This document shows, one piece after another, positions 978-4,252 of a stretch of 31,784 nt of DNA. This DNA is from a virus. Location: UHGV virus genome UHGV-0321443; one strand, 5' to 3'. The translations under genes and the position numbers were made by a program. Numbering within the stretch: position 1 is the stretch's first letter; each line of letters begins with the position of its first letter. Below the pieces are notes generated by a model, which saw only the letters and a program-made list of their open reading frames with translations, was not told the DNA's origin and did not search any database.

Positions 978-1361
978 TCACCTCGCCGTCAGTTGTTTTG
1001 ATTTCCGGTATCCTGCTGCGTAAAGAGCTACATCTGGAAGACATACACCAGTTTCTGGTTGCTTATGTCCAAACTCATTCGCGTACACAATGGCCGCTCT
1101 CTCCAGATTGCGTCTGTATTCTTTCTGTTGCCAGATCACGTCCTGTGCCATGAACTTAATTGGCTTAGCGTCTTCTATGCGCTCAGGCGTTTCGTGAGTA
1201 CCTTTAGCCTGAATCTGCGCTCTGCTTAGAGTAGGGCGGTGTAATACTTCTGAACTTATTGCTTCTTCGCGGGCCAGTACGCCGTTAGCTAATGCCTTTG
1301 CCTTTAAACGCTCACGACGACGAGAACGTGAATTGCCTTTGAACTGAGTTCTGCGTGTCAT
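978..1361 (-). CDS. N-like transcription antiterminator (P22 gp24-like)
   Basis: Arg-rich N-terminal motif (GNSRSRRRERLKAKALA) and C-terminus VALYAAGYRKSKQLTAR, close to my recollection of the P22 gp24 C-terminus; AGGAGG SD upstream; sits immediately downstream of pL and nutL. Confidence 0.7.
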   Translation of the reverse strand: MTRRTQFKGNSRSRRRERLKAKALANGVLAREEAISSEVLHRPTLSRAQIQAKGTHETPERIEDAKPIKFMAQDVIWQQKEYRRNLERAAIVYANEFGHKQPETGVCLPDVALYAAGYRKSKQLTAR

Positions 1362-1526
1362 ATAGACCTCCTGATGAACTTTGGTGGTGTGGTAGGTGGG
1401 AGACCCATTTCGACCTGTTTCGGCCTACTTCAATTCGGCAATAGTCCCGCAGGCCTCGCCGCTTTACGTGCGACATATTCCCGTCCATGAACCCTTCACC
1501 ACACCCCAAAGTTCACTTTGGTTATT

Positions 1527-1541
1527 GCGCTTTGTCAGCGC
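1527..1541 (-). promoter_or_regulatory. nutL boxB hairpin (P22-type)
   Basis: Minus-strand transcript reads GCGCUGACAAAGCGC (4-bp GC stem, 7-nt loop), matching the P22 boxB as I remember it; lies between pL and the N start. Confidence 0.55.
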
Positions 1542-1609
1542 CGTAGATTCATATTCGAATCGTTGTATATTCACCGCCCTGGTGAGTAGTGCGTCCTGCT
1601 GATGTGTTT

Positions 1610-1639
1610 AGTATCACCGCCAGTGGTATTTATGTCAAC
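1610..1639 (-). promoter_or_regulatory. pL early leftward promoter
   Basis: Minus strand reads TTGACA - 17 nt - GATACT, overlapping oL1 and oL2 as in lambda. Confidence 0.75.
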
Positions 1640-1672
1640 ACCGCCAGAGATAATTTATCGCCGCAGATGGTT
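1612..1672. promoter_or_regulatory. oL1-oL2-oL3 operator array (lambda-type CI/Cro sites)
   Basis: Three 17-bp sites: tatcaccgccagtggta (1612..1628), caacaccgccagagata (1636..1652), tatcgccgcagatggtt (1656..1672); the first two match lambda oL1/oL2 as I recall them. Confidence 0.8.
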
Positions 1673-1831
1673 ATCTGTATGTTTTTTATATAGATTTATT
1701 TTTTTGCAGGGGTGTGTGGCTTGGGAGGTGATCGAGAGATCTGAATTGCGATGTTTAGTGAGTTGTATCTATTAATTTTCAAATAAATACAATTGGTTAT
1801 GTGTTTTGGGGCGAACGTGAGGCAAAGAAAA

Positions 1832-1859
1832 CCCGGCGCGGTGGCCGGGTTTATTTATT
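1832..1859. terminator. Bidirectional rho-independent terminator (t-imm-like) closing the cI-side operon
   Basis: Hairpin cccggc-gcggtg-gccggg at 1832..1849, flanked by T-rich runs on both strands (tttatttatt on plus; ttttctttg on minus). Overlaps the stop codon of the 1855..2505 gene. Confidence 0.6.
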
Positions 1860-2505
1860 GCTTAGGAGCTTGTTGTGATGACGATTGGTTAGTTGGAGCG
1901 CTCGTTAATGGTTGCTGTGTCGGTACCTGTATTATAATTGGAGCCGGGCTGGTTACTGATGGTGACTTGTCATTGCCGGAGATAATCCAACTTGAGGCTA
2001 ACATCACGCCAGACAGAATCACAGTAACTAAAGTCAAGCCAACGGCCATCGCCCACTGAGTCGTTGTAAGTCCCGTTTTCAAACCGCCGATTTCACCTTT
2101 AATTTCAGCAATACCTCTCTCAATAGAAGAAAATTGCTGAGTATAATAGGTTTTAAAGTCAGCTGATTCGCGACGCATTTCCGCAGCAATAGACTCTACC
2201 TCTGATTTGTTTTGTGAAAGCTTTGCGTCAAGTTCTTCTCTGGACATTCCGCTCACGCTTACCTCCAGGGTATCACTCTTCATCGCTACATCTTCCTTAC
2301 TTGGGCGCAAACCCGTTTCGTCCATGGCGTATGAAACTCTATTTGATACCTTAGCATCAATACCAATACTTTGGTACTGAGATGGATCCCCATAAGGAGA
2401 AACGGTTGTCGCTGCTAGGGTTGCACTAACTATAATACTTGGAAGAACTGATGATGTTGTTCCTGAGGTAGGTTGAACTGAAGAAACTGGCTTCAGTCTT
2501 TCCAT
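1855..2505 (-). CDS. Hypothetical membrane-anchored protein (216 aa) with N-terminal Ser/Thr-rich region, central charged helical region, one predicted TM helix and a Ser/Thr/Pro/Gln-rich C-terminal tail
   Basis: Six-frame ORF; hydrophobic stretch WAMAVGLTLVTVILSGVMLASSWII; start overlaps the upstream gene's stop by 13 nt (ATGGAAAGACTGA), implying translational coupling; ends at the terminator before oL. Confidence 0.55.
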   Translation of the reverse strand: MERLKPVSSVQPTSGTTSSVLPSIIVSATLAATTVSPYGDPSQYQSIGIDAKVSNRVSYAMDETGLRPSKEDVAMKSDTLEVSVSGMSREELDAKLSQNKSEVESIAAEMRRESADFKTYYTQQFSSIERGIAEIKGEIGGLKTGLTTTQWAMAVGLTLVTVILSGVMLASSWIISGNDKSPSVTSPAPIIIQVPTQQPLTSAPTNQSSSQQAPKQ

Positions 2506-2759
2506 AGCCCATTATCCCTGAGAGCTACCTGTAATGATTTTACTAATGCAACAGCTTGATCCGGGCTCATTGAGACTGACATGTTAGGGGTCAACTCAAC
2601 TTTTACTTGGAAGCTATTCTTTCCTTGCTCATCAGACTGCATGTGATGCTCAAATTCATGGCGGTAAAAAGTAATGATTGTTTCAGCACGATCAGGCGTA
2701 ATAAGAACTGATGTGGCGGTCATGTGCTGAGGTATGATTTTAATAGTGTTATCTGACAT
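2493..2759 (-). CDS. Hypothetical small protein (88 aa; the ORF could extend to 2900 for 135 aa)
   Basis: ATG at 2759 has AAGGA about 5 nt upstream (MSDNTIKIIPQHMTATSV...); upstream in-frame Met codons lack an SD. No recognisable domain. Confidence 0.45.
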   Translation of the reverse strand: MSDNTIKIIPQHMTATSVLITPDRAETIITFYRHEFEHHMQSDEQGKNSFQVKVELTPNMSVSMSPDQAVALVKSLQVALRDNGLWKD

Positions 2760-2951
2760 AAGTATCCTTTTTGTTTCCTTAGTATTTTTTTGCATTGACA
2801 TCAGAAATAGCGAATCCACAAGAGTATGAGTAAAGCTAATCAGTTTAGTGATACGGTGACTATTAAAGTGGTAAACCACATCAAAGCTCGCAGAGTGCAT
2901 ACCAGGCTGTCACACATGACAAAGTAACGAGGATGCCTGATCTCATAGCGC

Positions 2952-3107
2952 TCAAAGAGACATGCCGATAATGGCATTAACCACGCATGACGCCATAAAC
3001 ACGCCGCCAACGATGAAGCTGGCTTGGTTCTTCCTGGTAGCGCCAAGAGTCAACAGAACCACTGAAAGGGCAAAAAAAGGTATCGCGATTATGCTGAACG
3101 TGTTCAT
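2952..3107 (-). CDS. Small hydrophobic protein, 51 aa, two predicted TM helices
   Basis: Hand translation of the minus strand: MNTFSIIAIPFFALSVVLLTLGATRKNQASFIVGGVFMASCVVNAIIGMSL; SD GAGG 5 nt upstream of the ATG; 77 bp downstream of the cI stop on the same strand. Below the ORF-track size cutoff. Confidence 0.4.
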   Translation of the reverse strand: MNTFSIIAIPFFALSVVLLTLGATRKNQASFIVGGVFMASCVVNAIIGMSL

Positions 3108-3184
3108 GTTGACCTCAACTTATTTCGATTCTCCATCACCCTTAATCCGCCGCCCCATGTGTTTGTTGTGATTCGTTGCTGGCC

Positions 3185-3898
3185 TTAACCAAACGTCTCT
3201 TCAGGCCACTGGCTGGCGATAACTTTCCCCACAACGGAACAACTCTCATTGCATGGGATCATTGGGTACTGTGGGTTTAGTGGTTGTAAAAACACCTGAC
3301 CGCTATCCCTGATCAGTTTCTTGAAGGTAAACTCATCACCCCCAAGTCTGGCTATGCAGAAATCACCTGGCTCAACAGCCTGCTCAGGGTCAACCAGAAT
3401 TAACATCCCGTCAGGAAAACTAGGTTTGGATCCTGTTGGCGCGGTCATGGAATTACCTTCAACCTCAAGCCAGAATGCAGAATCACTGGCTTTTTTGGTT
3501 GTGCTTACCCATCTCTCCGCATCACCTTTGGTAAAGGTTCTAAGCTCAGGCGAGAACATCCCGGCCTGAACATGAGAAAAAACAGGGTACTCATACTCAC
3601 TTCTAAGTGACGGCTGCATACTAACCGCTTCATACATCTCGTAGATTTCTCTGGCGATTGAAGGGCTAAATTCTTCAACGCTAACGTTGAGAATTTTTGC
3701 AAGCAATGCGGCGTTATAAGCATTTAATGCATTGATGCCATTAAATAAAGCACCAACGCCTGACTGTCCCATCCCCATCTTGTCTGCGACAGATTCCTGG
3801 GATAAGCCAAGTTCATTTTTCTTTTTTTCATAAATAGCTTTAAGGCGACGTGCGTCCTCAAGCTGCTCTTGTGTTAATGGTTTCTTTTTTGCGCTCAT
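3185..3898 (-). CDS. cI: CI repressor (lambda-type, S24 LexA-like autopeptidase domain)
   Basis: 237-aa translation is near-identical to phage lambda CI as I remember it ([53 protein letters not shown]...), including the C-terminal cleavage/dimerisation domain; flanked by lambda-type operators. Confidence 0.95.
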
Positions 3899-3908
3899 AC
3901 GTTAAATC

Positions 3909-3972
3909 TATCACCGCAAGGGATAAATATCTAACGCCGTGCGTGTTGACTATTTTACCTCTAGCGGTGATA
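3909..3972. promoter_or_regulatory. oR3-oR2-oR1 operator array with overlapping divergent pRM/pR promoters
   Basis: tatcaccgcaagggata (3909..3925), taacgccgtgcgtgttg (3932..3948), tacctctagcggtgata (3956..3972); pR reads TTGACT (3946..3951) - 17 nt - GATAAT (3969..3974) towards cro. Confidence 0.85.
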
Positions 3973-3998
3973 ATGGTTGCATGTACTAAGGAGGTTGT

Positions 3999-4199
3999 AT
4001 GGAACAACGCATAACCCTGAAAGATTATGCAATGCGCTTTGGGCAAACCAAGACAGCTAAAGATCTCGGTGTATATCAAAGCGCGATCAACAAGGCCATT
4101 CATGCAGGCCGAAATATTTTTTTAACTATAAACGCTGATGGAAGCGTTTATGCGGAAGAGGTAAAGCCCTTTCCAAGTAACAAAAAAACAACTGCATAA
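3999..4199 (+). CDS. cro: Cro repressor
   Basis: 66-aa translation [65 protein letters not shown] matches lambda Cro from memory; AGGAGG SD upstream. Confidence 0.95.
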
Positions 4200-4237
4200 G
4201 TAACACCGCTATTTTCACAATGGACATTCGTCCTACG

Positions 4238-4252
4238 TCGCTGACAAAGCGA
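4238..4252 (+). promoter_or_regulatory. nutR boxB hairpin (P22-type); possible boxA at 4208..4216
   Basis: tcgcTGACAAAgcga stem-loop with the same GACAAA-type loop as the nutL site at 1527..1541; upstream cgctatttt resembles boxA. Confidence 0.5.

Follow-up and report, generated by a model that had tools for sequence, protein, structure and literature searches.

The window examined here, the full 31,784 nucleotides of the UHGV virus genome UHGV-0321443, carries near its left end an early regulatory region that joins parts known from different lambdoid phages. A sequence-only reading had described positions 978–4252 as a lambda-type cI/cro/operator block embedded in a P22-type N/nut antitermination system. 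We conclude, with a confidence of roughly 95%, that the region belongs to a lambdoid phage or prophage of the HK97 kind, whose early regulatory region holds an immunity cassette of lambda specificity within an early-transcription framework of the HK97/H-19B type. The cassette comprises oL/pL, cI, oR/pRM/pR and cro; to the framework belong the antiterminator gene N, both nut sites and most of cII. The positions of these elements and their matches to known sequences are direct observations, whereas their functions are deduced from H-19B and lambda.

The relationship to HK97 is apparent from the alignment of the entire region. Using megablast, window positions 927–4618 align as a single collinear block to positions 25983–29657 of the HK97 genome (AF069529/NC_002167) with 98.6–98.8% DNA identity, and the HK97 record lists the identical gene order N, gp48, gp49, cI, OR, cro and cII. 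Within this block, which also includes nutL, oL, nutR and cII, the cI and Cro proteins are fully identical to those of HK97 (237/237 and 66/66, respectively) and N is identical at 125 of 127 residues. However, 50 point or indel changes distinguish the two sequences, including an A-to-G exchange in each of oL3 and oR2; the boxA-like element of nutR reads CGCTCTTTT in HK97 as compared to CGCTATTTT in the window, and merely 83 of 98 residues are identical in cII. The flanks also differ: where HK97 carries gp45, the window has a gene for an Nmad5-domain protein, and rightward it continues with an HNH gene and another replication module.

The same N, nut sites, operators, cI and cro recur at 98.7% identity in mEp234 and HK106 (EF120460 and EF120461), which, however, carry hicAB and one other gene instead of gp48/gp49 in the slot between oL and cI. 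The mEp234 record annotates these sequences as putative boxA and boxB of nutL and nutR, oL1–3, oR1–3, pL, pR, pRM, Timm and a ‘boundary sequence’. Both records reportedly stem from work by Degnan et al. in 2007 on wild phages that have lambda immunity. The Shiga-toxin phage H-19B, and likewise phages of the 933W type, share the N/nut system: 124 of 127 N residues agree with H-19B, and nutL and nutR are identical including their spacer hairpins and boxB. The window matches the H-19B sequence AF034975 without exception at positions 1516–1604; from 4192 onwards into cII, position 4311 is the sole mismatch. In contrast, cI, cro and the operators are different in H-19B, which therefore has an immunity of its own, and so is the middle of the N leader.

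For the cassette, the lambda-like character of cI, cro and the operators proposed in the earlier reading proved correct. The cI gene (3185–3898, minus strand) encodes a repressor of lambda specificity that differs from lambda cI at two of 237 residues only (A3T and N71K) and contains the Pfam domains HTH_3 and Peptidase_S24. Cro, encoded at 3999–4199 on the plus strand, matches lambda Cro at 65 of 66 residues and PF09048 with E = 3e-35. Both operators are tripartite and consist of lambda 17-bp (base pair) operator sites at lambda spacing. The left region (1610–1672, minus strand) contains pL together with oL1 (1612–1628), oL2 (1636–1652) and oL3 (1656–1672), which have zero, zero and one mismatch to lambda; the right region (3909–3974, plus strand) contains pR and pRM together with oR3 (3909–3925), oR2 (3932–3948) and oR1 (3956–3972), with zero, one and one mismatch. 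Thus, three of the six operator sites are identical to lambda. In a promoter scan, pL and pR (10/12 each) were the only strong matches at the operators. A Timm-like terminator at the end of the cI operon (1824–1852, minus strand) matches Timm of EF120460 exactly and was also detected in a terminator scan. Overall, cI, cro, oL, oR, pL, pR, Timm and the oop end of cII share 89–98% DNA identity with lambda, and the general logic of N, boxB and Nus factors is the same. The differences from lambda lie in N, which in lambda belongs to PF11438, in boxB, which reads GCCCUGAA(A/G)AAGGGC in lambda, and in rexAB, which is missing from the window.

The operators carry one peculiarity. In oR2 (position 3936) and in oL3 (position 1660), A is replaced by G at position 5 of a half-site, giving TAACGCCGT in oR2 and TATCGCCGC in oL3. 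This change was not found in lambda, HK97 or mEp234, and the best match among 617 E. coli genomes carrying the oR region was 130/131. The exact variant strings returned no match in the GTDB species genomes (searched with oR2 only) or in IMG/VR (searched with both), where the wild-type oR string occurred 102 times. The cI and Cro proteins accompanying these variants are unchanged. Conceivably, the switch has been retuned, the prophage is decaying, or the bases were called wrongly.

N is encoded by the first open reading frame downstream of pL (978–1361, minus strand) and is a small basic protein of 127 amino acids with an N-terminal arginine-rich motif. It is of the HK97/H-19B type and has relatives at 98–99% identity in H-19B, 933W-type and many other Shiga-toxin phages. 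The protein matched PHROG 271 (‘anti-termination protein N-like’; E = 2.6e-38) and scored 58.5 bits against PF25694 (‘transcriptional antitermination N peptide’; cut-off 27.9). This profile covers the whole of the window protein, yet with a far lower score than P22 gp24, which matches end to end with 152 bits; lambda N reaches 16.4 bits. Searches of PDB sequences yielded chance matches only (E of at least 0.74). The core of the arginine-rich motif, RSRRRER, is specified by codons 12–18 (1308–1328, minus strand) and is predicted to bind boxB; residues and numbering are those of H-19B N, in which alteration of 12-RSRRRER-18 abolishes antitermination (PMC3526286). According to the same study, H-19B N acts at the H-19B nutR/tR1 region together with NusA and NusG, its motif at residues 12–18 recognizes nut, and residues 101–127 are treated as the RNA polymerase-binding C-terminal domain. 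Both segments correspond to those of the window protein, in which codons 99–127 (981–1067, minus strand) specify the stretch held in common with P22 gp24 in BLASTP comparisons, presumably the RNA polymerase-binding domain. We also considered whether residues 41–46 (HRPTLS), which weakly resemble NRPILS of lambda N, might mark a NusA-binding motif common to both proteins; we make no such claim, as the BLASTP match (E = 0.012) includes the arginine-rich motif.

Both early transcripts carry a boxB hairpin, with terminators downstream. The nutL boxB hairpin GCGCUGACAAAGCGC (GCGCTGACAAAGCGC) maps to 1527–1541 on the minus strand, 62 nucleotides downstream of the pL start; it is identical to H-19B, is annotated in EF120460, and folds with −8.5 kcal/mol (z = −3.2). 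Its counterpart at nutR, UCGCUGACAAAGCGA (TCGCTGACAAAGCGA), lies at 4238–4252 on the plus strand, 39 nucleotides downstream of the cro stop codon, and exactly matches H-19B and the annotated nutR boxB of EF120460. Each copy folds as a 5-bp stem closed by a GACAA pentaloop. Both hairpins contain the core CGCUGACAAAGCG, which is found at these two places of the window and nowhere else, in either case on the strand that is transcribed. Likewise, the 13-nucleotide core CGCTGACAAAGCG has exactly two copies in 31.8 kb, one on the minus strand downstream of pL and one on the plus strand downstream of cro.

Upstream of each boxB, a structured spacer separates the hairpin from a boxA-like element. At nutL, the putative element CGCACUACU (1585–1593, minus strand) exactly matches the ‘nutL, boxA’ feature of EF120460 and is located 43 nucleotides upstream of boxB; the intervening spacer hairpin GAUUCGAAUAUGAAUC (1546–1561, minus strand) was predicted in the minimum-free-energy as well as the centroid fold and is identical in H-19B. 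At nutR, the element CGCUAUUUU (4207–4215, plus strand) occupies the position of ‘nutR, boxA’ in EF120460, which also reads CGCTCTTTT, is identical to H-19B, and lies 22 nucleotides upstream of boxB; here, the spacer is predicted to fold into the hairpin GGACAUUCGUCC (4222–4233, plus strand). Relative to the boxA consensus CGCTCTT(T)A, both elements are degenerate, and the one at nutL also fits the P22 boxA CGCTCTTTA poorly. Neely and Friedman (2000) reportedly described a reduced host-factor requirement for H-19B, as the title of their paper has it. Farther on, between nutR and cII, the tR1 region is predicted to form another hairpin (4275–4303, plus strand), whose sequence is again identical in H-19B. 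In that phage, nutR forms two hairpins and its spacer is protected by N with NusA/NusG and by Rho; nutR/tR1 is a characterized Rho-dependent terminator, and nutR overlaps the tR1 loading region (PMC3526286). Rfam has no nut or boxB family, and a study of co-transfer in lambdoid phages (PMC9836094) does not discuss N/nut.

The borders between cassette and framework can be located by identity breakpoints. Lambda aligned by blastn at 1571–1851 (89%), 3189–4213 (97.6%) and 4572–4630 (98%). On the left, 17 nucleotides at the start of the pL transcript (AGTGCGTCCTGCTGATG, 1588–1604) are common to lambda, H-19B and the window in a four-way alignment, and their 14-nucleotide core GCGTCCTGCTGATG is present in P22, too. 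On the right, lambda-like sequence gives way to H-19B-like sequence at positions 4190–4193, in the third-from-last sense codon of cro: bases 4190–4191 agree with lambda and not with H-19B, whereas base 4193 agrees with H-19B and not with lambda, which places the switch at approximately 4191–4193. Hence, of the two intervals initially proposed for the junctions, the left one (1541–1612) contains the observed zone, but the right one (4199–4238) begins about 6–8 nucleotides too far to the right. A further mosaic joint, which had escaped the sequence-only reading, lies inside the cassette, where rexAB is replaced by HK97 gp48/gp49 and a 51-amino-acid open reading frame (1851–3189). The arrangement appears to have arisen through recombination at short conserved boundary sequences, namely the pL transcript start and the end of cro.

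Of 5,426 complete E. coli genomes, 45 contain the module over at least 80% of its 3.7 kb, with about 99% identity. Its nearest E. coli copy lies in a prophage of strain E110019 (NZ_CP035751; 99.5% identity), whose N gene is annotated merely as a 69-nucleotide pseudogene fragment ‘regulator’ (1032433–1032501) despite alignment of the DNA along the whole gene; this probably reflects an annotation problem or a frameshift.

To survey N/nut systems surrounding lambda immunity, we classified the flanks of the 102 IMG/VR contigs that contain the exact lambda-type oR2–oR1 string. In the first class (25–31 contigs), N and both boxB elements are those of lambda. The second class (23–35 contigs), to which the window belongs, combines HK97/H-19B-type N with GCGCUGACAAAGCGC at nutL and UCGCUGACAAAGCGA at nutR. 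A third class (13–16 contigs) encodes a true gp24-type N, whose N-terminal 43 amino acids are essentially those of P22 (64–96% identity overall), and has GCGCUGACAAAGCGC at nutL and the P22-type boxB CCGCCGACAACGCGG at nutR. The fourth class (3–5 contigs) is of HK620 type for N and both boxB elements. Thus, immunity of lambda specificity is paired with at least four N/nut systems, and in these contigs the boxB types of nutL and nutR always agree across the cassette; none of the 102 combined lambda-type and GACAA-type boxB on opposite sides. As judged from this classification of flanks, a true P22-type N/nut system around lambda immunity does exist, namely as the third class, whereas the window represents the second.

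Comparison of N proteins with their boxB elements bears on how the recognition parts are inherited. The C-terminal tail CLP(N/D)VA(L/I)YAAG(Y/H)RKSKQ(L/I)TAR accompanies no fewer than five different arginine-rich motifs and four boxB types among N proteins, including those of VT2-Sa, HK630, HK140 and the Salmonella phage g341c (NC_013059). The motif GNSRSRRRER of the window and H-19B goes along with boxB GCGC-UGACAAA-GCGC, as does GNAKTRRHER of P22. GSAAGRRRER of g341c is accompanied by CGGC-UGAAAA-GCCG, GTAASRRRAR of VT2-Sakai by UGGC-UGAAAA-GCCA, and DNARNRRRAR of HK630 and HK140 by CCGC-CGAAAU-GCGG. Since the tail occurs across differing motifs and boxB types, the C-terminus of N is no indicator of RNA specificity and hence a poor marker of nut specificity. 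Phage L provides the converse mosaic, that is a gp24 with the P22 N-terminus and an unrelated C-terminus, which is still interchangeable with P22 gp24 (PMC8022706).

The g341c case is informative. Its N protein is 72% identical to the window N, and its nut leaders are homologous including the spacer hairpin and CUACG before boxB. Nevertheless, UGAAAA is the sequence of its two boxB loops, corresponding to UGACAAA minus the extruded C, and its arginine-rich motif differs too, a coordinated change at three separate loci. It is therefore conceivable that the arginine-rich motif and the boxB elements of nutL and nutR, three separate pieces straddling an unrelated immunity cassette, are exchanged or co-evolve as a set. 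Two observations speak for this idea: the HK97/H-19B and P22 motifs, on proteins with unrelated middles, accompany an identical nutL boxB, and the motif of g341c N has changed together with both boxB loops. We regard it as a tentative proposal to which we assign somewhat less than even odds.

The sequence-only reading had gone further and proposed that N and both nut sites derive from P22, that is lambda immunity recombined into a P22-type antitermination system. Some similarities indeed point to P22. The nutL boxB is identical to that of P22 over 15 of 15 nucleotides, the GACAA pentaloop is present at both nut sites, and N and gp24 both belong to PF25694, a cut-off that lambda N fails. The likeness of the N C-terminus to gp24 was borne out by alignment, with 21 identities in the last 30 amino acids (BLASTP; E = 2e-10). 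The arginine-rich motifs are related as well: over 17 residues, FKGNSRSRRRERLKAKA of the window and FAGNAKTRRHERRRKLA of P22 share eight identities, which does not imply equivalent binding specificity (P22-type motif, GNAKTRRHERRRKLAIER). However, the remainder of the comparison speaks against descent from P22. DNA similarity of the framework to P22 is confined to 68 nucleotides at 73.5% (blastn, 980–1047), the only other matches being short cI fragments, and residues 1–98 of N gave no BLASTP alignment to gp24, leaving the middle of the protein unrelated. The P22 nutR boxB CCGCCGACAACGCGG and the P22 boxA CGCTCTTTA, which in P22 is found 11 nucleotides upstream of the nutL boxB, are missing from the window together with this 11-nucleotide spacing; CGCTCTTTA and CCGCCGACAACGCGG make up the P22-type nutR in the third class of lambda-immunity contigs, in which the arginine-rich motif is identical to that of P22 and both P22 nut sites are present. 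Spacer length, flanking DNA and immunity (c2/cro in P22) are all unlike, and the C-terminus shared with gp24 is also found with other boxB types. P22 ancestry of N and both nut sites is thus largely refuted, and we consider it very improbable. The designation ‘P22-type’ appears valid at the level of the family, that is for RNA target, arginine-rich motif and Pfam membership, and the boxB elements are rightly set apart from lambda’s; it does not extend to the nutR boxB or to descent, for which HK97/H-19B type is the more suitable label.

Alternatively, the two hairpins could be inverted repeats that arose by chance, or terminators, and play no part in N utilization. In its favour, the longer nut regions taken as wholes fold just modestly better than shuffled sequences (z = −1.4 to −1.8). 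On the other hand, the 13-nucleotide core is present twice where 0.08 matches are expected with up to one mismatch, and two copies occurred in none of 100 shuffles. Moreover, each hairpin resides on the transcribed strand at a nut-like location and neither is followed by a run of T residues; both are identical to the nut sites that H-19B uses, and in g341c both loops change together with the arginine-rich motif. The comparison with related phages likewise places the hairpins as nut sites in EF120460 and H-19B, and every element named in the earlier reading is present where it had been placed. We accordingly give chance hairpins or terminators next to no credence.

The assignment to a lambda-specificity cassette in an HK97/H-19B-type framework has to accommodate several less favourable points. 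Neither CGCACUACU nor CGCUAUUUU fits the boxA sequence well, and both are treated as putative elements. N is not fully identical to its characterized relatives, as three residues differ from H-19B N and two from HK97 N. The private A-to-G exchanges at oR2 and oL3 might affect how the repressor binds, and the sequence does not reveal the direction or the number of the recombination events.

Given the near-identity of N to that of H-19B and the identical nutR, it is reasonable to assume that the window copy acts like the H-19B N/nut system. In the lysogen, cI would repress pL and pR and would be co-transcribed with three accessory genes up to Timm. Upon induction, the pL transcript, starting at approximately position 1603, would carry the nutL boxB hairpin and subsequently N. 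The arginine-rich motif of N (residues 12–18) would then bind the GACAA-loop boxB on the nascent pL and pR RNAs, and N, in concert with NusA and NusG and via its C-terminal ~27 residues, would convert RNA polymerase to a termination-resistant form. Leftward, the modified polymerase would have to pass the terminator-like hairpins at 304–285, 158–141 and 120–101 to reach cIII and beyond; rightward, it would pass the Rho-dependent tR1 just past nutR and the further hairpin at 4275–4303 before cII.

The slot occupied by rexAB in lambda contains three accessory genes (1855–3107, minus strand): a gp48-like gene (1855–2505) and a gp49-like gene (2493–2759), both known from the HK97 annotation, and a membrane-type open reading frame for 51 amino acids (2952–3107). 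The gp48 homologue comprises 216 amino acids with a C-terminal membrane segment and the gp49 homologue 88 amino acids, while the 51-amino-acid product is hydrophobic and its frame carries no annotation in the HK97 record. No lambda homology was detected by blastn between 1851 and 3189, the PHROG matches of the accessory genes are families without annotated function, and PADLOC returned no defence-system match for these three genes or for the Nmad5 gene. The slot between Timm and cI is hypervariable according to the summary of Degnan et al. given in PMC7067206.

The cII gene (4338–4634, plus strand; PF05269) is itself a hybrid. It resembles HK97 and H-19B over most of its length (84/98 residues identical to H-19B, 39/102 to lambda), with substitutions clustered at 4329–4403 and 4562–4613, and its last 59 nucleotides (4572–4630) are the 98% match to lambda, including the oop terminator (4583–4610, minus strand).

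Several neighbouring features were noted in passing. The Nmad5 gene between N and cIII (293–919, minus strand) encodes 208 amino acids with a full-length ‘nucleotide modification associated domain 5’ (PF18757, E = 3.9e-70). Directly after cII and before the replication genes, an HNH-endonuclease-domain protein of 270 amino acids is encoded (PHROG 16986; 4644–5456, plus strand). Similarity to HK97 ends at 4618, and the replication module, consisting of an initiator (5459–6334) and a DnaC-like helicase loader (6319–7182), differs. In positions 1–7000, the sole Rfam match was the lambda cIII thermoregulator (RF01804; 26–84, minus strand; 88.5 bits, E = 3e-21), from which it follows that the window starts inside or just upstream of cIII.

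The arrangement described here is already known from the HK97 genome sequence and from the annotated records of wild phages with lambda immunity, and work on H-19B has dissected its N/nut system. The region is an ordinary and common example of lambdoid mosaicism, and the main use of the analysis is correct annotation as lambda immunity with an N/nut system of the H-19B/HK97 type. This label predicts homoimmunity with lambda and HK97 as well as an antitermination specificity common to many Shiga-toxin phages. In addition, the region offers a clean worked example of module exchange at short conserved boundary sequences, and its private operator variants in oR2 and oL3 might be the signature of a lambda switch retuned in nature. 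Should HK97/H-19B N and P22 gp24 be cross-functional at each other’s nut sites, one antitermination specificity would extend across genera despite heteroimmunity.

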